From Minisyncoccia bacterium (GTDB lineage: Bacteria > Patescibacteriota > Minisyncoccia > Phycocordibacterales > Phycocordibacteraceae): a stretch of 64,000 nucleotides of DNA. Positions 11,476 through 54,986 of this stretch are shown here, piece after piece. Location of the stretch: contig JBBQUV010000005.1 in the NCBI GenBank assembly GCA_038212075.1, positions 9,984 through 73,983 on the forward strand, read 5' to 3'. The translations under genes and the position numbers were made by a program. Within the stretch, counting starts at the first letter, position 1; each line of letters starts with the position of its first letter. The notes beneath the pieces are model-generated. The model did not search any database and was not told the DNA's origin. It saw only the letters and a list, made by a program, of their open reading frames with translations.

Positions 11476-11589
11476 ATGAATCTAAACGCACATAGGTACG
11501 ACGTCATTGTCGTTGGTGGGGGAGCGTCCGGCATGATGGCCGCCGCTATAGCGAGCGCACGTGGCAAGCGCAATGTTCTTCTTTTTTAA
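11476..11589 (+). pseudogene. 37-codon 5' fragment duplicating the start of the HI0933-family flavoprotein gene at 14105
   Basis: MNLNAHRYDVIVVGGGASGMMAAAIASARGKRNVLLF* vs MEDSTPKRYNVIVVGGGASGMMAAAIASARGKRVLLLEKN; about 85 nt near-identical (50-nt perfect run) then diverges; TAA at 11587. Confidence 0.6.
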
Positions 11590-11834: not shown

Positions 11835-13799
11835 GTGGAAGCCCCTATTCCAGAAGCGACACCTCCCATTCCGCCAGTGCCTGGCGCCCACCCGGAAATA
11901 AGCATAACTCTATTTGCTGGCATCATTATTCTGGAAATCTTGCTCGTTTGCGTATTTGCCTCGTGGAAATTTGGATTTCTGACGGAAAAAAATACTGTAG
12001 TAAATAATGGTGAAGAAACAAGCACCGTAACAGAAGACACTGGAACATCGCAAGGGAACTACAATTCTTCTGATCGATTTTTGACTCCACAACAGTTTCA
12101 AGTTGCGCGATTAAGTCTTGGCAGTACCACCCCCAAAGTACTCAAAGACAAGTATGATCTGTTCGTGCTCAGCCAACCGTACGAAGATATTGATACTAAC
12201 GGCGTTACCACCTATTACGAAGATGGGACTTTGTCGTCGGGAACATATGCGGGATACCATGTGATTATTGCTCGTATTACACCCTATGACAACGATGGAC
12301 CTGGCAGTAGCGACGAGTACTACACCTTCATCACCAAGGATTACCGCTCATTTATTGTATTTACCCCAGAGATAGGAAAACTACCGAATCCGACATGGTT
12401 TAATACTGCGCGCGTTGTCCAAGCGGATCATTTCGCAACTCATTTTCCAAACACTATTCCGTTTGGGAATTTTGTTCTTACAAAAAGTGAATGGTTTAAC
12501 TCAGATGTTTTGTATGATCACAACAATACTTCTCCTGTAGGAACGGTTGAACTCACGAGTCCCGATCCACACCTGAAAATTTTCTCTGAGCCAGAAGAAC
12601 CTCTTACTAACCTTGAAGATACTCTTACAAAGACGCTTGCCGATGCTGCAGCCGCGTACATTTATGGGCGGACCACCGTTATGGTGCGCGATGAAGCAGG
12701 GATTGGATTTGTTTACTCGCTTTCCTTTGCGCACTTTGCAAATCCAAATGATCCAGCAGGTCGTATTCCAAACACCGAGTACCGCTACGGATATTTGGGA
12801 GTAGCTCAAAACCAGCCGACGCTCTATTCTTCCTATGCAAAATTAATTCCTTACGGTTGCGAAGGCGCAAACTCCTCTGAGAGTTACGTTCTTAAGAATA
12901 TCTCTGATGCTGATGTCCGCGACACGGGTATTAAGTGGCAGGGTGTTGAGTTGTATGCCTTTGCGAACGCACGTAATCCACTCACCGAGGCCCATTATCG
13001 TCAAAAGGTTGCAGCATACGCCGCGATATATAAGAACGGAAGCGAGTCCGCCACTCTGGATACACTTGCGTTTACTGACTATATAGCAAAAACCCCAACG
13101 CTTCTTTTTAAAGATCCGTGGGGCAGATGGGTGGGTGTTGGAGAAGATGAATACAAGGTAACTGGAGGTTGCGGGAAACCGGTGATTTACCTGTATCCTC
13201 CTCAATCGACTGAGGTATCAGTGCAATTTATGCAATCACCGAGGTTCACTACTGATATACCAATCTATGAAAATGGTTGGAAGGTACTCGCGGAAACGAC
13301 GGGAGCACTTCACGACTTGCAGCCAGCCCTGACTCCTTGCGAGACATTGGCTACCAACGTATTTGGCTCCGAATATGCGGGAGCAGCCTGCAAAACAAAC
13401 ACCTACCCATATCTCTTCTGGGCAGGACAAGCAAATGGAAACTACCCAACGCCGACTGGAGGATGGATTGTGGAGAAGGCAAACATAGAATCGTTTCTAG
13501 GATCAAAATTGACTGAGCTTGGCTTAAATGACACAGAACGCAATGACATGCTCTCATTCTGGGTGCCGCAACTCATGAAAAAGAATAGTCCGTACTATCG
13601 GTTGGCTTTCTTTCAAACGAGCGAAATGAACCATTTCATACCTATGATTATTTCACCGCGTCCCGATAGCATGCTCCGACTCTTCCTTGATTGGACACCG
13701 CTTTCTACTCTTCCGGATCATCTCCCACAGCCACAACAGTTACATCAATTCCACCGGTCTGGATTTGCGGTAGTCGAGTGGGGAGGTCTTGATCGTTAA
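11835..13799 (+). CDS. hypothetical large exported / membrane-anchored protein
   Basis: 654 aa; Pro-rich N-terminus then one TM/signal-anchor (ISITLFAGIIILEILLVCVFASW); large hydrophilic Y/W/N/T-rich ectodomain; no motif recognised. Confidence 0.55.
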   Translation: MEAPIPEATPPIPPVPGAHPEISITLFAGIIILEILLVCVFASWKFGFLTEKNTVVNNGEETSTVTEDTGTSQGNYNSSDRFLTPQQFQVARLSLGSTTPKVLKDKYDLFVLSQPYEDIDTNGVTTYYEDGTLSSGTYAGYHVIIARITPYDNDGPGSSDEYYTFITKDYRSFIVFTPEIGKLPNPTWFNTARVVQADHFATHFPNTIPFGNFVLTKSEWFNSDVLYDHNNTSPVGTVELTSPDPHLKIFSEPEEPLTNLEDTLTKTLADAAAAYIYGRTTVMVRDEAGIGFVYSLSFAHFANPNDPAGRIPNTEYRYGYLGVAQNQPTLYSSYAKLIPYGCEGANSSESYVLKNISDADVRDTGIKWQGVELYAFANARNPLTEAHYRQKVAAYAAIYKNGSESATLDTLAFTDYIAKTPTLLFKDPWGRWVGVGEDEYKVTGGCGKPVIYLYPPQSTEVSVQFMQSPRFTTDIPIYENGWKVLAETTGALHDLQPALTPCETLATNVFGSEYAGAACKTNTYPYLFWAGQANGNYPTPTGGWIVEKANIESFLGSKLTELGLNDTERNDMLSFWVPQLMKKNSPYYRLAFFQTSEMNHFIPMIISPRPDSMLRLFLDWTPLSTLPDHLPQPQQLHQFHRSGFAVVEWGGLDR

Positions 13800-14104: not shown

Positions 14105-15355
14105 ATGGAAGACAGTACTCCCAAGCGCTATAACGTTATTGTCGTTGGTGGGGGAGCGTCCGGCATGATGGCCGCCGCTATAGCGAGTGCGCGCGGCAAG
14201 CGCGTGCTTCTTCTTGAAAAGAATTCAAGACTTGGCGAGAAGCTTGCCATATCCGGCGGCGGCCGTTGTAACATACTGAACGCTGAAGAAGACGAGAAAA
14301 AACTTCTTGCACAGTATGGAAAATCAGAACAATTTCTCTACTCAACGTTTGCGAAGTTTGGAATGAAGGACGCGTATACATTTTTTGAAACAAACGGCTT
14401 GCCGCTCATCGTAGAAGGTCGCAAACGCGCATTTCCCAAAACTGAAAAAGCAAAGGACGTGGTACGGACGCTAGAGCGTGCTCTTACCAAGGGAAATGTT
14501 GCTATCCGCCTGAAGTCTCCTGTGACAAAAGTACATCACGAACACGGACGCATTACTTCTGTTGAAGCGGGCGGAACTGCATACTCTGCTGACTCCTACA
14601 TCTTTGCGACTGGAGGATTTTCTCGCCCCGAGACCGGTTCAACAGGTGACGGCTTTTCTTGGCTTACGAGTCTTGGGCACACGTTTCATCCGCCAACCCC
14701 AACCATTGTCCCGCTGAAATCAAAAGAATCGTGGGCGAAAGAGCTCTCCGGTACTTCCGCGCCAGACGCAAAGATTACGTTTTCAGTGGAAGGTAAACGT
14801 GCTTTTTCTGCGATTGGTTCAATTCTTTTTACCCATACCGGAATATCAGGGCCCACGATTCTAAATTCTTCTGGAAAGGTGGCGGATCTTCTGCAAGAAG
14901 GGGAAGTAACGGCAACCATAGACCTTTTTCATAAAACCGACGTAGGTACTCTTGATAAGGTACTTTCTGATGTATTCGATCAGAACAAAAATAAATCGTT
15001 AAGAAATGCGTTCAGAACCTTCGTTCCACCAGGAATGAGTACGGTGTTGCTTTCACTGCTTCCTGATATTGATGTGGAAACAAAAGTACACAGTGTGACT
15101 AAAGAAAATCGACGACGACTGGTAGTTCTTGTGAAATCGTTACCGCTTAGTATCACGGGGCTCATGGGGTTCAATAAAGCGGTTGTCGCAGATGGAGGTG
15201 TACCGCTTACGGAAATAGATATGCGAACCATGCGTTCGAAGAAAGTAGAAAACCTTTTTATCATCGGCGACTTACTCCACATTGCAAGACCGTCAGGTGG
15301 CTACTCACTGCAGTTGTGCTGGACGACTGGACACGTTGCTGGTACAGCCATATAG
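14105..15355 (+). CDS. HI0933-family FAD-dependent flavoprotein (BaiN / aminoacetone-oxidase family)
   Basis: 416 aa; N-terminal FAD dinucleotide fold VIVVGGGASGMMAAAIASARGKRVLLLEKNSRLGEKLAISGGGRCNILN, which is the family signature. Confidence 0.8.
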   Translation: MEDSTPKRYNVIVVGGGASGMMAAAIASARGKRVLLLEKNSRLGEKLAISGGGRCNILNAEEDEKKLLAQYGKSEQFLYSTFAKFGMKDAYTFFETNGLPLIVEGRKRAFPKTEKAKDVVRTLERALTKGNVAIRLKSPVTKVHHEHGRITSVEAGGTAYSADSYIFATGGFSRPETGSTGDGFSWLTSLGHTFHPPTPTIVPLKSKESWAKELSGTSAPDAKITFSVEGKRAFSAIGSILFTHTGISGPTILNSSGKVADLLQEGEVTATIDLFHKTDVGTLDKVLSDVFDQNKNKSLRNAFRTFVPPGMSTVLLSLLPDIDVETKVHSVTKENRRRLVVLVKSLPLSITGLMGFNKAVVADGGVPLTEIDMRTMRSKKVENLFIIGDLLHIARPSGGYSLQLCWTTGHVAGTAI

Positions 15356-23427: not shown

Positions 23428-23943
23428 ATGAAGGATAGAAAACGACTCTTTGATGAAGCGTTTACGACCTATGCGGACGAACTTTTTCGCCATGCTTTTT
23501 TTCGCATTTCAGACCGTGAACGCGCTGTTGATCTCGTGCAAGAGTGTTTTCTTCGTTCCTATACGTATGCAAAAGAAGACGATATTCATGATATTCGTGC
23601 ATTTCTGTACCGCATCTTGAGGAACCTCATTATTGACGAATATCGTAAAAAGAAATCGTACTCACTTGACGCCCTGCTTGAAGGAGAGGATTCTCCTGAA
23701 CGGCTTCTTCCTACGGATGACACCAATACGATAGAGGCGGCAACTGAACGACTCGATGCAAAAGCGGCGTTCGAAAAGGTGTCCGAACTTCCGCCGCACT
23801 TTAGCGAGGTGCTTCTGTTACGATTCGTAGACGGGTTCTCGCCCAAAGAGATTGGGGAACGCGTTGGCATTTCTGAAAATCTGGTATCCGTCCGCATTCA
23901 CCGCGCACTCAAAGCACTTCGCGCCCTCGTTGAAACACCATGA
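23428..23943 (+). CDS. ECF-subfamily RNA polymerase sigma-70 factor
   Basis: 171 aa; region 2 (LVQECFLRSY) and region 4 HTH (VLLLRFVDGFSPKEIGERVGISENLVSVRIHRALKALR); GGGAAGG SD upstream. Confidence 0.8.
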   Translation: MKDRKRLFDEAFTTYADELFRHAFFRISDRERAVDLVQECFLRSYTYAKEDDIHDIRAFLYRILRNLIIDEYRKKKSYSLDALLEGEDSPERLLPTDDTNTIEAATERLDAKAAFEKVSELPPHFSEVLLLRFVDGFSPKEIGERVGISENLVSVRIHRALKALRALVETP

Positions 23944-25004
23944 ACCCATTCACCAAACAATTTCATACTGAAGCTGAAAATGTCCGCCTCACGAGCGCGG
24001 AGCGTTCGCGTATCTATCGCGCACTTCATGCCGAGATGGAAAAAACGGCGCCCACTATCGTTCCATCACCATTTTTTCCAACGAATTTTTTCTTTTCTCG
24101 CGCCATGGTTGCTGTCGCACTTATTCTCGTTCTTGGAACGGGTACAGCGACCTATGCGGCGGAAGCTTCGCTACCCGGAGATCTTTTGTACCCAGTAAAA
24201 GTGAATGTTTCAGAACCGATAACCGGAGTATTTGCGTTTACGCCATCAGCAAAAGCCGAGTGGCATGCGCGCGTCGCTGAGGCTCGTTTGGCAGAAGCCG
24301 AAACGCTTACAGAGCGTGGCACGCTTACCGAAGACACGAGCGTCGCGCTTTCAAACGACTTTAATGCGCACGCCGCGGCAGTAACGGACATCACTACAAC
24401 TATTCGCGAAAGCGACCCTGTGTCTGCACAAGATATAGATACCTTGTTCCAATCTGCGGTTGCGCATCATGGCTCTGCAATTTTGGTTGCGGCAAAAAAT
24501 CATAAAAATGAGCTTGCGCTTAAGACGTCGGGAGATTTCGTCGTCAGTGTGGTGAATGACACTACGGACGTGCCAGCTGAAACAGGTGTAGCAACTGCCG
24601 CAATGGCCGCGCCAGTCACGGCGTCAGCCGTTCTGACGAAGACTGCCTCGCCAGCTCCTATGCCGGTTCAGACCGTGTCCGACAGTAATGACAATGGTAT
24701 CTATCTCGCTCGCGAAGCCCACACCCTCCTTTCCATCGCAACGAGTTCCGACGCTCTATTGGTGGCCACGACACATCGTTCAAATAACCAGACGGTTATT
24801 GCGACCGCCGAAGGTCTTGTGGTGAAAGGCGACGCGTATCTTTCTGTTGGTATGCGTCAGCGAGCAATCCACGACTTTACTCGCGCCATCACTCTTCTAA
24901 AGACACTCACTGAACCTACCGATACAACCGTTAATTCCGGAACCATATTACAAGCGGCTCCACCTCCTACGCCACCAGCACCAAACGTTCTAGGAGCACC
25001 ATAA
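23940..25004 (+). CDS. putative anti-sigma factor / single-pass membrane protein
   Basis: ATGA overlap with the sigma gene; TM helix at about residues 55-75; Ala/Thr-rich ectodomain; Pro-rich C-terminus. Confidence 0.4.
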   Translation: MNPFTKQFHTEAENVRLTSAERSRIYRALHAEMEKTAPTIVPSPFFPTNFFFSRAMVAVALILVLGTGTATYAAEASLPGDLLYPVKVNVSEPITGVFAFTPSAKAEWHARVAEARLAEAETLTERGTLTEDTSVALSNDFNAHAAAVTDITTTIRESDPVSAQDIDTLFQSAVAHHGSAILVAAKNHKNELALKTSGDFVVSVVNDTTDVPAETGVATAAMAAPVTASAVLTKTASPAPMPVQTVSDSNDNGIYLAREAHTLLSIATSSDALLVATTHRSNNQTVIATAEGLVVKGDAYLSVGMRQRAIHDFTRAITLLKTLTEPTDTTVNSGTILQAAPPPTPPAPNVLGAP

Positions 25005-36439: not shown

Positions 36440-36445
36440 TTGCGT

Positions 36446-38359
36446 ATGTCTGCGGAAGGAATGTCAGGTGCGTCAAAAACAAAAAAAGAAAACGAAGGCA
36501 GTGATGCCCCTGCGTTTGTTAAAGACTTTTCGCGCGAGCAAAGTAAGGAGAGTCGTTCGGAACTTGCGCAAAAAATTCGTGCAGAACGCACGGAACAGTT
36601 TGAACAAAAAGATGAACAGGCAAAACTAGTGAGCGAGTTGGGATCACTCAGTAAACAGCTTGATGAATACAATGATGCTTCATTTCTAAACAAGATTAAA
36701 GACTACTTTAAAATGCGCGCGACGCGAGAAAAGCTTGGCCTCGTTACAGCGGAAAAAGGAACCGTTGACACCGCACTCGCAGACAACAATCCAAATCAAG
36801 ACGGAAAAGATGCTATCGGTGACTTCTACGAAAAAGAAAAACAAACGTGGGCAAATGCAGACTATGCAAAGGAAGATATCGCACAGCACTTTACGGAAGA
36901 AAACCTTGCCGCGCTTTCAATAGACGATTACGCACTTCTTATGAAACGATTTCCTTCAGAAATGGTAACGCACGTAACGCGGCAGGGTATTCGTGACCAC
37001 ACGGGCATGTTTTTTCATTCAGCAGGACAAGATGTTTTTTCCCATGGTTTTGAAAAGATGCTTGAAGACGGTAAGCGTCTAAAATCTCCTCTCGCTGTTC
37101 GGCTTGCTGAAGGAGCAAAGGACGAAGCGGTTATACGCGCGATAACCCCCGTTACGATGAACGGAGCAATACCACCAGAGTCTCGTGAACAAGCTCTTGA
37201 GTATCTACACAGTATGGTAAACAAATATGACGATTCGGCGAGTGTTCACTTTGCTGCCGAAGAAGTCGCCGACAACTATTACGGTTCGGAAAAAGGTAAC
37301 GAAATTTTTATGACGTATCCGTCAGCTTTTATCGCATCGCAATACTACTCTGGTCACACCGACGCCACAATGCAAAGTGGAGATAAAATGTGGAACGATG
37401 TATGGGTACGAGATAGAGATGAGAAGGGTATGAATCTGGATGCCGCTATCACCTTCATACCAAAATCCGCACGCGTAGACCCTCGTAATGGTTCGCGGTA
37501 TGAAATAGGACAAGATGGTGCGCCAGCAAGAAATGAGGCGGCATATCAGGGTCTTGCGGCACTCGCGTCGCACCCAGAAGTTGCATCGCTTGGCGAACAG
37601 GTAAACCAAATATTAGGTAAGGTGAGTGAAGAGCTCCCGCCACCTTCCACATGGGAAAAAGAATTGAACGACACTAGCCTCAGAGGATATCCGTATAAAG
37701 AAGCGCTCCAAGCGTTGTTGCCCATACGAGACAAAATAAAGGAAATAACCGGAATAACCGATGATCGGATATTGAAAAGCATTTTAGAGTCTCGAAGTGC
37801 TGGTCAGGTAAAGCCGAATATCAATGATCTTGCTAGAGAGTTTTCGCAGAGCGAAAACTCGGGCGCTAAAGCTGGTTTGGACGGTGCCGTAAATAAAATT
37901 CTCGAATCCTCTGGAGCACGTTTCCTTGAAGCAAAAAATACCGTTTCTTCGGAAGAGTATTGGCAGAACTATTTTTCTGAGCATACAGATTTGCGTCCTT
38001 CAAAAGTAGTGTTTTACGAAGGAGATGATCCAAGTAAGGCACTCACGGCGTGGAAGCAAAAGATGGGTCTAACTAAAACAAACAAAGCAGAAAACATGGG
38101 ATTTGCTGAACGTCGATTCACTGACACTGATGGCGCTGGTTTTGGTTCCGATAGATTTGAATCTATGGCGCAGAAAGTGATAGATGAACGTTTCCCTGAA
38201 CAAGAAGAAGTTGCTCCTGTGATTAGGGAAGAAAGCGAATCCAACCCGTTACGCAACACGAAGTATCCAGAAGAAATGCTTGATGAAGAACCACCTCCAC
38301 TTCCGCCGGAAGATATTCCTGTCCGTCGTCCGCCACCTCCACCCCCGCCAATAGGGTAG
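36446..38359 (+). CDS. hypothetical protein (about 637 aa, no signal peptide) with C-terminal acidic poly-proline tail EEPPPLPPEDIPVRRPPPPPPPIG
   Basis: ATG 36446 preferred over TTG 36440; no recognised domain; tail motif shared with the protein at 52870-53937. Confidence 0.5.
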   Translation: MSAEGMSGASKTKKENEGSDAPAFVKDFSREQSKESRSELAQKIRAERTEQFEQKDEQAKLVSELGSLSKQLDEYNDASFLNKIKDYFKMRATREKLGLVTAEKGTVDTALADNNPNQDGKDAIGDFYEKEKQTWANADYAKEDIAQHFTEENLAALSIDDYALLMKRFPSEMVTHVTRQGIRDHTGMFFHSAGQDVFSHGFEKMLEDGKRLKSPLAVRLAEGAKDEAVIRAITPVTMNGAIPPESREQALEYLHSMVNKYDDSASVHFAAEEVADNYYGSEKGNEIFMTYPSAFIASQYYSGHTDATMQSGDKMWNDVWVRDRDEKGMNLDAAITFIPKSARVDPRNGSRYEIGQDGAPARNEAAYQGLAALASHPEVASLGEQVNQILGKVSEELPPPSTWEKELNDTSLRGYPYKEALQALLPIRDKIKEITGITDDRILKSILESRSAGQVKPNINDLAREFSQSENSGAKAGLDGAVNKILESSGARFLEAKNTVSSEEYWQNYFSEHTDLRPSKVVFYEGDDPSKALTAWKQKMGLTKTNKAENMGFAERRFTDTDGAGFGSDRFESMAQKVIDERFPEQEEVAPVIREESESNPLRNTKYPEEMLDEEPPPLPPEDIPVRRPPPPPPPIG

Positions 38360-38369
38360 TATTACTGGT

Positions 38370-38597
38370 ATGGCTGACGAAAAACAATTTGATACTAGTG
38401 CCGCGATGAACAGACAGAAGAGCTTTGTGGCGGATGCGCAGAAGGCTCGTGATGGACTCAATACCGATGTTATTAACTATTACTTCGAGCGCACCCCGAA
38501 AGATGAATCAGATGAAAAAACAAACCGCGACGCAATACGAAAATACGTACTTGTTGCCCGTGATCGTCTCAATGATTTACTTGATAGGCTTCGCTAG
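38370..38597 (+). CDS. hypothetical small protein (75 aa)
   Basis: ORF only; charged, helical-looking. Confidence 0.3.
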   Translation: MADEKQFDTSAAMNRQKSFVADAQKARDGLNTDVINYYFERTPKDESDEKTNRDAIRKYVLVARDRLNDLLDRLR

Positions 38598-46449: not shown

Positions 46450-48843
46450 ATGGATACTACGGCATCTTCACAAAAACTCTCATTCGATACGATTGCGGCA
46501 TGGGCGCTTGGCATTACGCTTGTTGCCGCCGCCGTCGCATTTATTCCTTCCGCATCAATTCCATTCCTCTATACGAAAGTTTCTCTGCTTGCGGTTGGCG
46601 CAATCATCACTCTTGCGCTCTACATTCTTGCTCGCCTTACTCGCGGCAATATTATTATCCCTTCCTCAATTCTCCTTGGTGCACTGTGGTTTGTTCCACT
46701 TGCGTACCTGCTTTCAACGCTTTTTTCAGGTACCAATCTACGCACGGCATTCTTCGGTACCGAACTTGAAATAGACACTCTCGGGTTTGTTGTCCTTGCC
46801 GCCCTGCTTGGAACACTCGCCGCACTCGTGCTTCGTCGTCGTGAACACTTGAAACAGTTTTATCTCATCTCTGGTGCGATGTTCACCATCGTGCTTATCG
46901 CTGAAGTAGTTTTTGTGGTGCTTGGACAAATAATGCCAAATACCATTTCAGCAACGGCAAACGTCGTGGGTTCGTTTGAAGATCTTGGTATTTTTGTTGG
47001 ACTCTTCCTTACCACCTCTCTTCTTGGACTTCGCTTCCTCACACTTTCTTCGAAAGTCCGTCTTGGCCTTTTGATTGCTGGCCTTATCTCACTTGGGGTT
47101 CTTGCACTCGTCAACTCCTCCCTTATCTGGATTATGGTCGGTCTTGTGGCGCTCGGTCTCTTTATTGAAGCTATTATGCGCCGCACTGTACTCACTGGCG
47201 ACGAAGACTTGGAAGGTGTTGCAACGGTACCGATGGCAATGCAATCGACTAGTGAAGAAGAAACCCCTCACTCTTTGCTCACCCCACTTATTGTCCTTGT
47301 TGTATCGCTTTTCTTCCTTATTGGCGGTTCCACCATTGGTAACGCACTTTCTGGCGCGCTTCACACAAGCGTACTTGACGTACGTCCATCATGGACAGCT
47401 ACCTTTGGTGTTGGCGGGCATACCTATGCCGCTTCACCGGTCTTTGGAACAGGCCCTGGTTCGTTTGCGGGACAGTGGACGAAGTTCCGTGATCGCTCTA
47501 TTAACGATACACCCTTTTGGAATATTGATTTCACTTCGGGTATTGGGTACATACCTACCTCGGTGGTAACGACGGGTGCTGTCGGCGCTATCGCTTGGCT
47601 CGTGTTCTTCGGACTCTTCCTCGTTCTTGGTGTTCGATTCCTCTTAATGCGCGCACCAAGTGAATCCTTCGCGCGCTTCGTATCACTCTCGTCATTTGTG
47701 GGCACAGTGTACCTCTTCGCCCTCTGTGTTCTTACGGTGCCAGGTCCAGTCCCTGTTGCTCTCGCATTTATTCTTGCTGGAGTATTCGTTTCTTCAATGC
47801 GTTACGGTGTTGATGCTCGTGAATGGGGAGTCGCCTTCTCGCGAAGTCCGCGTGTTGGATTCTTGATTGTGTTTGGCCTCACCATTATCTTGCTGTCATC
47901 GGTTTTCGGTATCTATGTGGTGGTAGAACGTTACCTTGCCAATGTCTCGTACACACAAGCATCAAATGCCCTTGCTCAAGGGAATATTGTGCTCGCAAAA
48001 ACAGACATCGCGCGCGCTATTCTCTTTGCGCCATCTGATCGCGCGTACCGTCTTTCAAGCGCCGCTGGTGTGGCTCGCTTGAATCAGATTGCAAGCGACA
48101 CGAGTCTTACGGCCGATCAGGCACGCACAGACTTCCAGACAACGCTTTCAACCGCAGTTTCGGATGCGCTCACTGCTACTCAGCTTGGATCAAATGACTA
48201 TCAGAACTGGGCGGCGCTCGGGTCGGTGTACAGCTCGGTTGTTCCGCTTGGCATTCAAGGTTCCTACGATAACGCAAAGAGTGCGTACGAACATGCCGCA
48301 ACACTCAACCCAACAAACCCGTTGATTCCTTTTGTGCTTGCACAGCTTGCAATCGCAAACAAGGACGGTGCTACGGCAGAAACTAAGCTTACCGAGGCCA
48401 TCAGCTTGAAACACGATTACACGCAAGCGATCTTCCTTCTTTCTCAGCTTGAAGTGCAAATGGGTAAGGCAAAGGAAGCACTCCTAGCGGCAGAAGCGGC
48501 GGCATACTTTGCGCCATCAGATTCCGTGGTGCTTTTCCAGGTTGGACTTCTTCGTCTTGGAACAGGTGACACCGATGGTGCCATTTCGGCACTCGTAAGT
48601 GCAACGAAGGCAAATCCTCAGTACGCAAATGCTCACTTCTATCTTGCTGTGGCGCTTGCGACTAAGAAGGATTATGTCGATGCGGCAAAAGAATTGCAGA
48701 GTGTAGCCGACCTTTCTCCGGAGAATGCCGCGGCAGTGAAGTCGTACATTGACGCTCTTACTGCAGGTAAGAATCCGTTTCCAGCAACAACGTTCGCAAA
48801 GCCGGTAGCAGAACCGGTAACCTCGGCCACTCCGGCGAAGTAA
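46450..48843 (+). CDS. O-antigen-ligase-like (Wzy_C-type) polytopic membrane protein with C-terminal TPR repeats
   Basis: 797 aa; about 12 TM with a large extracytoplasmic loop; C-terminal 300 aa are TPR-like (AYEHAATLNP.., ANAHFYLAVALATKKDYVDAAKEL). Confidence 0.55.
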   Translation: MDTTASSQKLSFDTIAAWALGITLVAAAVAFIPSASIPFLYTKVSLLAVGAIITLALYILARLTRGNIIIPSSILLGALWFVPLAYLLSTLFSGTNLRTAFFGTELEIDTLGFVVLAALLGTLAALVLRRREHLKQFYLISGAMFTIVLIAEVVFVVLGQIMPNTISATANVVGSFEDLGIFVGLFLTTSLLGLRFLTLSSKVRLGLLIAGLISLGVLALVNSSLIWIMVGLVALGLFIEAIMRRTVLTGDEDLEGVATVPMAMQSTSEEETPHSLLTPLIVLVVSLFFLIGGSTIGNALSGALHTSVLDVRPSWTATFGVGGHTYAASPVFGTGPGSFAGQWTKFRDRSINDTPFWNIDFTSGIGYIPTSVVTTGAVGAIAWLVFFGLFLVLGVRFLLMRAPSESFARFVSLSSFVGTVYLFALCVLTVPGPVPVALAFILAGVFVSSMRYGVDAREWGVAFSRSPRVGFLIVFGLTIILLSSVFGIYVVVERYLANVSYTQASNALAQGNIVLAKTDIARAILFAPSDRAYRLSSAAGVARLNQIASDTSLTADQARTDFQTTLSTAVSDALTATQLGSNDYQNWAALGSVYSSVVPLGIQGSYDNAKSAYEHAATLNPTNPLIPFVLAQLAIANKDGATAETKLTEAISLKHDYTQAIFLLSQLEVQMGKAKEALLAAEAAAYFAPSDSVVLFQVGLLRLGTGDTDGAISALVSATKANPQYANAHFYLAVALATKKDYVDAAKELQSVADLSPENAAAVKSYIDALTAGKNPFPATTFAKPVAEPVTSATPAK

Positions 48844-52715: not shown

Positions 52716-52786
52716 GCGGATATAGTTTAGTGGTAGAACTAGTGCTTCCCAAGCATTGGGCGGGAGTTCGATTCTCCCTATCCGCA
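52716..52786 (+). tRNA. tRNA-Gly (anticodon CCC)
   Basis: acceptor GCGGATA/TATCCGC; anticodon stem AGTGC/GCATT with loop TTCCCAA; T-arm GGGAG-TTCGATT-CTCCC; 71 nt. Confidence 0.8.
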
Positions 52787-52855
52787 CATTCTAGTGCTAG
52801 TTCAAGAGACCGAGATGCCGAGTCGGCAATCTCCCCCGAAGCTCGTTTTCTAGGT

Positions 52856-52861
52856 TATAAT
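52856..52861 (+). promoter_or_regulatory. -10 element TATAAT 8 nt upstream of ATG 52870; putative leaderless transcript
   Basis: TATAAT 52856-52861, no SD. Confidence 0.3.
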
Positions 52862-52869
52862 TTGGTCTC

Positions 52870-53937
52870 ATGTCACACGAAGGGATCCCGATAGCGCCCA
52901 CATCAAAATCACCGGAGGTATCGGATGGAATCTCTCCAGCGATAGAGCAGTCCAAGACATCTGTTGGAGCGATACAGGAGCAGGGCAGAGAAAGAGGAAT
53001 TCCGGCAACCGAACTTGCAGCTCTTGACGCCCTTGCGCTCGCTGCCGCACGAGAACGGCTCGGTTTAACCACCCAAGAACCGACAGCAGAGGCGCTAGAA
53101 AAAGTAAAGCAAGCCACCGAAGAAGCTGATCCGACGACCTATTCGCAACTTTCCCCCGCAGATTCTTTCGAGCAGGTGGGTGTTGCTAATGGTGGAAACA
53201 AAATCGTTGCGGCCGAAGGGGTACGATATATCAATATAAACCAATACCCTGAACGACAAGAAGCAGTTGTTCGGATGTTGAAAGGGATTATGAATGTCTC
53301 AGATATTGTGAAAGTCAACAATGGTGAGAATCCGCCAATCTACTATTCGAAGGAAATGCCCATCGATCGCGTGCAACAAGAAACCTCTCTCGAAGAAACA
53401 CAAGCCGATCACTTTATCCTCAAACAAGTATTCGGGGACTTTGATCACAAATTCTCTGCAGAAAAGATAAATAATACTGAACGCCGGGATGGTCGCTCAA
53501 TCCATTACGATTTTGGAAACGCTAATCCTATGAATATGGATGATGCGATGTACTCGTTTAAGTTGCTAGAGAAGGATATCGCGACTCTTTCAACTGAAGA
53601 GACGGGTGTAGTCCTACAGAAGCTCGATGCGCTCCAGAAGCGTTTTGCAGGAGCGGATAGCGAACGATTTATCAGTTCGATAATTAAGGCGTCGGGGATG
53701 GAGCCAATCAAGCTGTTTGGCCTCTACGATTTTGAAGTTGCGGATATCCTTGAAAAGACAGGAGCCAAGACCGTGGACTCAGGCGCAGTACAGAAACGCA
53801 TTCTTAATCGGATAGATACCGTCAGAAAATCCATTTCTGAATTCGTGCCGCCTCCATCGTCTTCGGAAAAGACGATCGACGATGAATTGCCTCCACCTCT
53901 GCCTGAAGACGAAGAATTACCGCCCCCGCTTCCCTAA
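52870..53937 (+). CDS. hypothetical protein (355 aa, no signal peptide) with C-terminal tail DDELPPPLPEDEELPPPLP
   Basis: no recognised domain; C-terminal acidic PPPLP repeats like the protein at 36446-38359. Confidence 0.5.
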   Translation: MSHEGIPIAPTSKSPEVSDGISPAIEQSKTSVGAIQEQGRERGIPATELAALDALALAAARERLGLTTQEPTAEALEKVKQATEEADPTTYSQLSPADSFEQVGVANGGNKIVAAEGVRYININQYPERQEAVVRMLKGIMNVSDIVKVNNGENPPIYYSKEMPIDRVQQETSLEETQADHFILKQVFGDFDHKFSAEKINNTERRDGRSIHYDFGNANPMNMDDAMYSFKLLEKDIATLSTEETGVVLQKLDALQKRFAGADSERFISSIIKASGMEPIKLFGLYDFEVADILEKTGAKTVDSGAVQKRILNRIDTVRKSISEFVPPPSSSEKTIDDELPPPLPEDEELPPPLP

Positions 53938-54104
53938 GTTAGCCGTCTATCGATGCCTAGACCGAGAGGCCCTGGCTTGTCTTACCAAAATCGACCAAAG
54001 AACCCTTGAAGCGCCTCACTCCATACAGTTCACGACCGAGTTGGGGCACAAAAAGTTATCCACATACCCCTCGTGCTATACTCGTCCTATAAAAGAAAAC
54101 AACT

Positions 54105-54347
54105 ATGGATAAGAACGTAACCATCTACAGCACACCGACCTGCCACTTTTGCCAAATGAGCAAAGAATTCTTTACTGCAAATGGCGTAACGTACACCGAA
54201 CATAATGTTGCTTCTGATCTTGAAAAGCGACAGGAAATGATCAAAAAATCTGGGCAAATGGGCGTGCCGGTTATCTTTGTGGGGGAAGAAATGATTGTTG
54301 GATTTGATAAAGAAAAACTTTCGTCACTTCTTGGAGTGAAGGCATAA
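54105..54347 (+). CDS. glutaredoxin-like protein (NrdH/Grx family)
   Basis: 80 aa; CHFC active site in YSTPTCHFCQMSKEFF; GVPVIFVGEEMIVGFD. Confidence 0.75.
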   Translation: MDKNVTIYSTPTCHFCQMSKEFFTANGVTYTEHNVASDLEKRQEMIKKSGQMGVPVIFVGEEMIVGFDKEKLSSLLGVKA

Positions 54348-54356
54348 GAGGACACA

Positions 54357-54386
54357 CAAAACCGCCCGAAAGGGCGGTTTTGTGTT
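54357..54386 (+). terminator. rho-independent terminator after the glutaredoxin gene
   Basis: AAAACCGCCCGAAAGGGCGGTTTTGTGTT. Confidence 0.7.
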
Positions 54387-54412
54387 AGGCTCGTTGTGTT
54401 CGCTTCGTTCTT

Positions 54413-54484
54413 GCTCCCGTAGTTCAATGGATAGAACGGCTCACTCCTAACGAGCTGATCCCTGTTCGACTCAGGGCGGGAGCA
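54413..54484 (+). tRNA. tRNA-Arg (anticodon CCT)
   Basis: acceptor GCTCCCG/CGGGAGC; D-arm GTTC..GAAC; anticodon loop CTCCTAA (A31-C39 mismatch); T-arm CCCTG-TTCGACT-CAGGG; 72 nt. Confidence 0.75.
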
Positions 54485-54491
54485 CAGAGTC

Positions 54492-54770
54492 TTGTGCGGT
54501 ATACTTACAGAAATGGATCCAGAATTGAAAAAACTTTTTGAAGAGAATTTGCAAGTGGCAAAGGAGAATAACGCCTTGCTAAAAGGAATGAGGACGCGAG
54601 CTCGCTGGAGTACTGCGATAACGGTCATTTTTTATGTTGTGGTACTTATCGTACCGCTCTTCTTTATTCAGCCATTTTTGGAGCAGGTACGGGGAGCAAT
54701 GGGGAACCCTGGCCAAGGTAGTTCTGGAGGGGGAAATATATTCCAGCAATACCAAGATTTGCTGAAGTGA
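54492..54770 (+). CDS. hypothetical small membrane protein (start may be Met at 54513)
   Basis: 92-aa ORF; one TM (ITVIFYVVVLIVPLFFI); Gly-rich C-terminus. Confidence 0.35.
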   Translation: MCGILTEMDPELKKLFEENLQVAKENNALLKGMRTRARWSTAITVIFYVVVLIVPLFFIQPFLEQVRGAMGNPGQGSSGGGNIFQQYQDLLK

Positions 54771-54804
54771 ACAAAAAAACGGGTTGTGATAGGATGGGCG
54801 GAAC

Positions 54805-54877
54805 GCTTGGATAGCTCAGTTGGTAGAGCACTTCCCTGAAGAGGAAGGGGTCGGCGGTTCGAGCCCGCCTCCAAGCA
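54805..54877 (+). tRNA. tRNA-Phe (anticodon GAA)
   Basis: acceptor GCTTGGA/TCCAAGC; D-arm GCTC-AGTTGGTA-GAGC; anticodon stem CTTCC/GGAAG with loop CTGAAGA; T-arm GGCGG-TTCGAGC-CCGCC; 73 nt. Confidence 0.9.
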
Positions 54878-54986
54878 CATTGAACGCAGTGAAAGTGCGG
54901 GAAGAGGCTGGCATGCGCCAGTCTCGCGGCGGGCTCGAATGCCGGAGCGATGATTTCCGAGCCCTCTCCATAACACCTGAATACGC

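Follow-up and report, generated by a model that had tools for sequence, protein, structure and literature searches.

An acidic PPPLP tail on two unrelated patescibacterial proteins: a conserved linear motif and candidate docking tag

Why should two proteins with unrelated bodies come to have the same type of ending? The question is raised by a stretch of 64,000 nucleotides (nt) from a Minisyncoccia bacterium (contig JBBQUV010000005.1 of assembly GCA_038212075.1, positions 9,984 to 73,983 of the forward strand), here termed the window, in which a protein of 637 amino acids (aa) and another of 355 aa, the representatives of what are here called family 1 and family 2, both terminate in an acidic stretch containing PPPLP. 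Comparison of sequences indicates a short linear motif that is under purifying selection and conserved above its surroundings. It belongs to no defined motif family, and what it does is less certain, with docking of its carriers inside the cell being the likeliest of several possibilities.

Two carriers and their endings

The family 1 gene of the window is on the forward strand at 36446..38359 in the list of open reading frames (ORFs), with an alternative TTG start at 36440 that would yield 639 aa. Its product ends ...DEEPPPLPPEDIPVRRPPPPPPPIG*, and the segment at 38270-38359 is exactly the last 29 residues, EEMLDEEPPPLPPEDIPVRRPPPPPPPIG, together with the stop codon. Approaching the C-terminus, and all on the forward strand, a variable acidic linker (38201..38281, residues ~586-612) separates the last conserved helix (...RFESMAQKVIDERFPE) from the core motif, D-E-E-P-P-P-L-P-P-E-D (38282..38314, residues 613-623), which is delimited by conservation among orthologues and by pattern match. 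The core is followed by a second element, I-P-V-R-R-P7-I-G (38315..38356, residues 624-637), that the five orthologues with the full form of the tail (P0001, P0002, P0004, P0011 and P0023) have in common as xPxRRPPPPP. The family 2 gene, from the same ORF list and also on the forward strand, is at 52870..53937, and its product ends ...DDELPPPLPEDEELPPPLP* or, taking a longer stretch, ...FVPPPSSSEKTIDDELPPPLPEDEELPPPLP. Its tail, I-D-D-E-L-P-P-P-L-P-E-D-E-E-L-P-P-P-L-P (53878..53934, forward strand), holds two xELPPPLP units, D-ELPPPLP and E-ELPPPLP, the second of which is at the extreme C-terminus.

PPPLP occurs three times in a six-frame scan of the window, confined to these two ORFs. Otherwise the carriers are unrelated, as BLASTP of one against the other aligns proline segments only, and comparison of the two family profiles by hhalign aligns just 13 tail columns, at a probability of 11%. 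Neither has a transmembrane segment or a signal-peptide h-region (maximum Kyte-Doolittle means over 19 residues are 0.57 and 1.05), with the absence of a signal peptide being judged by reading and hydropathy, and both N-termini being hydrophilic. The original prediction for this DNA, that two proteins with dissimilar bodies and without signal peptides end in these tails at these positions, is borne out on each count by the ORF list, the scan and the comparisons.

Selection on the peptide and distribution of the tail

The case for selection is carried by a contrast within the family 1 tail itself. Among ten tail-bearing orthologues, conservation, taken as the fraction having the commonest residue and with the motif counted as PPP[LF]PP, reaches 0.97 in PPPLPP, whereas the body has 0.69 and the 27-residue linker before the motif 0.19, and only 25 of the 561 hexamers of the body are conserved as highly as PPPLPP. 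The linker also differs in length among clade members, the spread reaching ~20 residues. In all five loci compared (the window, L121, L122, L123 and L124) the motif proline and leucine codons are synonymously different, and the guanine-plus-cytosine (GC) content of these loci spans 0.47-0.62 while the peptide motif stays the same. The two xELPPPLP units of the 355 aa gene similarly use different codons at six of their seven identical residues. Such a combination of island conservation and synonymous codon divergence argues for maintenance of the motif at the level of the peptide. Runs of proline cause ribosomes to stall and, unless they have a function, are generally selected against (PMC5811046), and this cost of translation makes neutral retention less likely still.

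Several ways in which such an ending could arise without selection for the peptide were considered. Proteins of the window (about 19,100 residues) contain 4.6% proline, 10% leucine and 10.7% aspartate plus glutamate, a composition that predicts 0.009 occurrences of PPPLP, of which three are observed, and 0.0001 of [DE][DE]xPPPLP; the back-translated degenerate DNA pattern has two matches in the window and none in 100 shuffles. Compositional drift was rejected on the GC of the window (~0.47), the proline content just given and the invariance of the motif over the GC range of the five loci. A slippage-prone DNA repeat was likewise rejected on the heterogeneity of the motif codons, and a recent DNA copy from one carrier gene to the other on the difference in codon usage. 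Were drift responsible, the original prediction had reasoned, the tail should be on a large fraction of unrelated proteins in related genomes; this is not what is seen in a sample that is small, where PPP[LF]P beyond family 1 is in the 355 aa protein alone among ~110 proteins (~60 of the window and ~50 encoded in the flanks of L121, L122, L123 and L124).

Family 1 comprises proteins of ~590 aa found across Patescibacteria, in records labelled Kaiser-, Taylor-, Jorgensen-, Falkow-, Moran-, Magasanik-, Berkel-, Pace- and Sungbacteria. There are 263 homologues, and the survey for the tail covers the 120 of these that were listed, among which identity extends down to ~35%. No significant sequence match was found in Pfam, NCBIfam, PDB, PADLOC or PHROGs (none with an expect value, E, below 0.007 and none above a curated cutoff), and Foldseek finds no match to the model of the protein in PDB or BFVD. 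A coiled coil at the N-terminus of the 637 aa protein precedes an alpha/beta body, and the positions invariant in the family (H176-V-T-R-Q-G-x-R-D-H185, H191, D263, H268, E282, N285-E286 and N317-D318) point to an enzyme not yet characterised, perhaps one that depends on a metal. Its AlphaFold model is confident, with a mean predicted local distance difference test score (pLDDT) of 82.7 and a predicted template modelling score of 0.78; the body averages over 80, residues 589-637 are below 50, and on this modelling the tail is disordered. Most of the 120 members stop within ~25 residues of the conserved helix ...DRFxSLAxKVIEDYF, with no prolines there, and many tail-less members of a ...DDRFPE subgroup end in short acidic proline-free tails.

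A PPPLP-type tail is present in ten of the 120, five having the full form, [DE][DE]xPPP[LF]PPE[DN]xxxRRPPPPP (the orthologues named above), and five a short form (P0003, P0005, P0006, P0007 and P0010). All ten are inside a single clade of 12 members in a neighbor-joining tree built from family 1 bodies only. The sister clade (P0012-14, P0016 and P0021) is without the tail, yet retains the synteny of the window. A single gain at the base of the one clade, with retention thereafter and some truncation or loss, would be the simplest reading. In another family 1 lineage, P0091 (L266, 8380-8562) has an independent acidic polyproline tail, AEPPPDLEDIPPPDDEEPPPDLDEPPPDEDEPPPDVEEVPP..., with five [DE]xPPPD units, and the C-terminus of this family seems prone to gaining acidic polyproline tails.

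Family 2 is an uncharacterised family of ~250-280 aa, with 163 representatives in an exhaustive HMMER search and no match in Pfam or PDB, whose conserved blocks are EADPTTYS, LLKGIxNVSD, FGDxDH...N and YFDF. The 355 aa protein is a divergent member with an N-terminal insertion of ~50 aa and an extra tail that reaches ~25-30 aa past the end of other members; its predicted structure, from an alignment of two sequences, has a mean pLDDT of only 45.9. PPP is absent from anywhere in 150 other representatives, so that the 355 aa protein is the only known tail-bearing member, and its closest relative, P0276 (~38-44% identity), ends ...EERLSKHS. As to the distribution of the tail, a check called for by the original prediction, one monophyletic family 1 clade and one family 2 protein have it and most members of both families do not. 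As a separate matter, K138, S160, D192 and D214 are invariant in family 2, with D190 and N202 nearly so, and the order LLKGIxNVSD...FGDxDH...N...YFDF may resemble that of the lysine, catalytic-loop Asp-Asn and DFG-like aspartate of small atypical kinase-like folds.

A docking tag and its rivals

The reading favoured here, tentatively and with slightly more doubt than belief, is that the tail is an intracellular docking tag for a common partner; the binding of a partner, the sharing of it by the two carriers and the cytoplasmic location are what we infer. A disordered C-terminal linker would present at its end an acidic run and then a rigid PPP[L/F]P(P) element of polyproline-II type, which would tether the carrier to a common partner inside the cell, in the manner of the SSB or FtsZ tails that recruit clients or hubs. 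The tail would have been born once, at the base of the family 1 clade, and mostly kept, with the family 2 protein of the window organism having later gained two copies of the unit and presumably plugging into the same partner. What favours docking is the conjunction of a disordered extension (for family 1, as predicted from pLDDT), a variable acidic linker, an invariant core under purifying selection and convergent gain by an unrelated protein. Of what the original prediction proposed by way of function, a common docking signal is the part that stands as the best reading, because the motif is conserved across a shift in GC, is an island in a disordered linker and has diverged in its synonymous codons; the other part, that the carriers are host-directed effectors with ligands of the WW, SH3, EVH1 or profilin type, is not supported, for reasons given below.

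In mode of action the closest analogue may be the C-terminal tails of bacterial hub proteins, i.e. the linker and tip of SSB and the C-terminal peptide of FtsZ. There too a short conserved peptide (DDDIPF for SSB-Ct) ends a variable disordered C-terminal linker, and an acidic flank precedes a proline/hydrophobic core; the extreme C-terminus is also where, or close to where, the motif lies in the 355 aa protein and in orthologues with the short tail. Bacteroidota DUF3127 proteins (see below), which join ...DDVPPPLPEED... and a DDDLPF tip in one tail, are a precedent of similar form among bacteria. However, the present carriers are not known hubs and have no ...IPF or ...FL(R/K) tip. A role for PxxP in the SSB linker, though proposed (PMC7290993, PMC8881015), has been questioned (PMC7145534, PMC10164576). 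Intramolecular autoinhibition, in which the acidic tail would act on a basic region, was rejected because both proteins are acidic throughout.

Several points weigh against docking. No partner was found, and Pfam scans of the ~60 main ORFs of the window show no proline-recognition domain. Just two carrier families are known, with the family 2 tail in one single sequence, and within the tail-bearing clade of family 1, P0008 and P0009 are tail-less and five others have the short form only. The ([DE]xPPPD)x5 tail of P0091 fits a looser, physico-chemical, requirement. Acid-flanked PPP[LF]P is also sporadically present in C-terminal tails of unrelated proteins of unrelated bacteria, on RmuC-like, ATP-grasp-like and TRAP-permease-like sequences (named by reading) and on DUF3127 proteins (by Pfam). 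It follows that the regular expression alone is not specific and is not a lineage-specific code, and such tails may be disordered regions of a generic class, with no specific code.

The last of these considerations leads to the main rival, which we regard as rather unlikely, namely that the tail is a generic disordered acidic/polyproline-II tail without a specific partner, serving as an entropic bristle, solubility tag or spacer, with the identity between carriers being convergence in a small sequence space. Both carriers are indeed very acidic (net -31 and -21), and the short acidic proline-free ends of the ...DDRFPE subgroup, the substitute tail of the P0091 lineage and the sporadic tails elsewhere in bacteria would all be at home with it. 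However, on this reading one would not expect PPP[LF]PP to be invariant in orthologues of ~50% identity next to a linker that varies freely (the 0.97 versus 0.19 above), nor both xELPPPLP units to be kept exactly although their synonymous sites are saturated, nor the second element xPxRRPPPPP to be conserved. These residues beyond a mere run of prolines are also pertinent to a translational device, a quite improbable alternative, in which ribosomes stalled by PPP and P7 near the stop codon in a manner dependent on elongation factor P (EF-P) would tune yield or couple to the 75 aa ORF (38370-38597) that begins 10 nt past the stop codon of the 637 aa gene. PPP and P7 are strongly stall-prone (PMC5811046), and their proximity to a stop codon recalls EF-P-dependent stalling motifs and arrest peptides. 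However, stalling leaves the conserved leucine and acidic residues unexplained, and both the 355 aa protein and the short-tail orthologues lack P7 yet keep PPPLP with its acidic flank. The carriers here, unlike arrest peptides, are large enzyme-like proteins and not short leaders. A stall motif of that type would be coupled to a conserved downstream gene, whereas the downstream gene differs between the window, L121, L122 and L123 though the tail is kept: MsrB in L121 and PQ-loop in L122 are both on the opposite strand, and L123 has DUF1153 after a gap of 465 nt.

The remaining alternatives look outside the cell, and for them genomic context is relevant. A C-terminal export or sorting signal, e.g. 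one related to type IV secretion or pili, with the carriers being effectors directed at the bacterium or archaeon that hosts an episymbiont, is improbable. Episymbiosis is common among Patescibacteria, which depend on machinery resembling type IV pili, and a C-terminal, disordered, acidic motif on leaderless proteins has a parallel in the Legionella/Coxiella 'E-block' of Dot/Icm substrates, a Glu/Asp-rich cluster in the last ~30 residues of proteins that are also leaderless. However, the E-block has no polyproline core, both present carrier families are widespread and not accessory, with most members being tail-less, and the syntenic context is of a housekeeping nature. No secretion apparatus was detected by the Pfam scans of the ~60 main ORFs of the window or at the orthologue loci, where a type IV secretion system was also not seen and the pilus-related matches (PilM/FtsA in L123 and a weak N_methyl in L122) are not conserved; the association with a secretion system that the original prediction asked about was therefore not seen in either place. 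Mimicry of eukaryotic ligands (WW class II PPLP, SH3 RxxPxxP or profilin polyproline) by effectors acting on a eukaryotic host is highly improbable. Resemblance in core and in polyproline-II character extends to ligands of WW class II, SH3 class I/II, EVH1 (ActA) and profilin, the last including the PPPLP of formin FH1. PPLP is in all three copies of the window and in 9 of the 10 clade tails, RRPPPPP of the 637 aa protein and of the four other full-tail orthologues fits the SH3 class I pattern [RK]xxPxxP, and P7 is suited to profilin-type recognition of poly-L-proline. The acidic flanks recall the (D/E)FPPPPx(D/E)(D/E) repeats of ActA, and the tandem copies in the 355 aa protein are a further resemblance to such ligands. 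However, the WW core is a 4-residue expression to which little weight attaches, and the SH3 one is also short and unspecific. The PPPLP units themselves, including both of the 355 aa protein, have no basic residue to suit either SH3 expression ([RK]xxPxxP or PxxPx[RK]). EVH1 class I ([FYWL]PxPP or [FYWL]PP[ALIVTFY]P) does not match, the copies being E-PPPLP, L-PPPLP and L-PPPLP with leucine and not proline as the fifth position. No SH3, WW, GYF, EVH1 or profilin-like domain is present in the scanned ORFs of the window, the sole peptide-binding repeat protein detected there being a large TPR protein (46450-48843). No host link was found either: the named relatives are Candidatus Kaiserbacteria, Taylorbacteria and metagenome-assembled genomes of other Parcubacteria, groups for which we know of no association with eukaryotic hosts. 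The effector and eukaryote-mimicry reading is accordingly not supported, given leaderless carriers and housekeeping synteny, and the broad, mostly tail-less bacterial families are not those of accessory effectors.

The context just referred to is typical of a chromosome of the Candidate Phyla Radiation (CPR), with LepA, BipA, ValRS, TsaD, MurJ and a DivIC-like protein, and also class II ribonucleotide reductase, riboflavin genes, MsrA, NUDIX and four tRNAs. For family 1 the order VTT-(Zincin)-MsrA-family 1-...-MsrB-VKOR-...-HhH-GPD is common to the window and the sister clade. The gene adjoins MsrA in the window, L121 and L142, an adjacency conserved only in the tail-bearing clade and its sister, and in the window and L124 a gene for HD_4 (RelA/SpoT-type) is near. 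Distant members of family 1 have no common gene context. The order for family 2 is LepA-DivIC-tRNA-family 2-glutaredoxin.

Were docking correct, the two tails would exemplify clearly how unrelated proteins of one bacterium can converge on a linear motif. A stronger proposal, unlikely yet with an appreciable chance, is that the tail-bearing Patescibacteria clade has evolved a polyproline-motif/receptor system of its own, the prokaryotic equivalent of PxxP-SH3/WW wiring. The acidic PPPLPP tag would then bring two or more proteins with no other relationship to the same hub. A receptor, once found, would offer a first clue to function for both families, of which at least one is CPR-wide; family 1 is enzyme-like and its fold has no match in PDB. 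CPR genomes are rich in conserved proteins whose annotation gives no function, and almost nothing is known of their interactions, so a selected tag on two of them is a cheap hook for experiment and computation alike (a suitable 20-mer is LDEEPPPLPPEDIPVRRPPP). If there is no partner, the tail is a constrained acidic polyproline-II tail of limited interest.

Searches further afield and other features of the window

Similar tails were sought in genome, metagenome and viral contigs by strand-blind DNA-pattern scans for [DE][DE]xPPP[LF]Px[DE][DE]. The genome and metagenome scans gave at least 120 matches each, and those listed are dominated by high-GC genomes, with many being in frames not shown to be coding. 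Among the matches listed no further Patescibacteria carrier was recognised besides the contig of P0002 itself (L166), and the sole one labelled CPR (L056, Saccharimonadia) has, by reading only, an antisense-type signature. None of the 17 matches in viral contigs is informative, the most similar-looking one (L130) being antisense to a Gly-rich protein. A search of a database of 5.8 billion proteins with a padded tail profile yielded one irrelevant match, of 70 aa, at E 8.7, and no description of PPPLP tails or proline-rich motifs in Patescibacteria was found in the literature.

Attention is drawn to a trap for back-translated motif searches. Some 30% of the listed matches in genome contigs are the antisense strand of a Gly/Ser-rich C-terminus (...SSGSGGGGSSGGGGGGGGGGGW; ...APGSSSGSGGGGSSGGGGGGGGGGGW) of DUF2207 membrane proteins, which in many phyla mimics a conserved peptide, YQPPPPPPPPPPP[ED][ED]PPPPLP[ED][ED]EPGA (e.g. 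in L001, L002, L007, L010, L026, L029, L032, L033, L041 and L042, with others). A different type of match is provided by the small DUF3127 proteins, of OB fold, of Flavobacteriia/Bacteroidota (L047, L080, L199 and L220), which end ...DDVPPP[LF]P[ED]ED[LF]xQLPPxEDDDLPF. Their C-terminal tail contains ...DDVPPPLPEEDL... and reads ...DDVPPPLPEEDLNQLPPEEDDDLPF, with a tip of the SSB type, and this succession of an acidic PPPLP and an SSB-Ct-like DDDLPF tip suggests that they plug into the SSB interaction network.

Within the window, the only other Pro-rich C-terminus is the non-acidic one (...AAPPPTPPAPNVLGAP) of a 354 aa DUF5667 protein, likely an anti-sigma factor, whose gene follows that of an extracytoplasmic function (ECF) sigma factor (23428-25004) with stop and start codons overlapping. 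Three tRNA genes surround those for the 355 aa protein and glutaredoxin (52716-54878), tRNA-Gly(ccc) at 52716-52787 being upstream of the former and tRNA-Arg(cct) at 54413-54485 and tRNA-Phe(gaa) at 54805-54878 downstream of it; the GC of this segment is not deviant and no integrase was seen in it. Elsewhere, a direct repeat of 83 nt, 90% identical between copies (11501-11583 and 14133-14215), flanks an ORF for 654 aa (11835-13799) that has no match in Pfam or PHROGs. The repeat duplicates the 5' coding end, with its GGGASG FAD-binding motif, of the gene for an HI0933-like flavoprotein (14105-15355), the other copy being 2.6 kb upstream, and the arrangement looks like an insertion into or beside the start of the flavoprotein gene that would have regenerated its 5' end.

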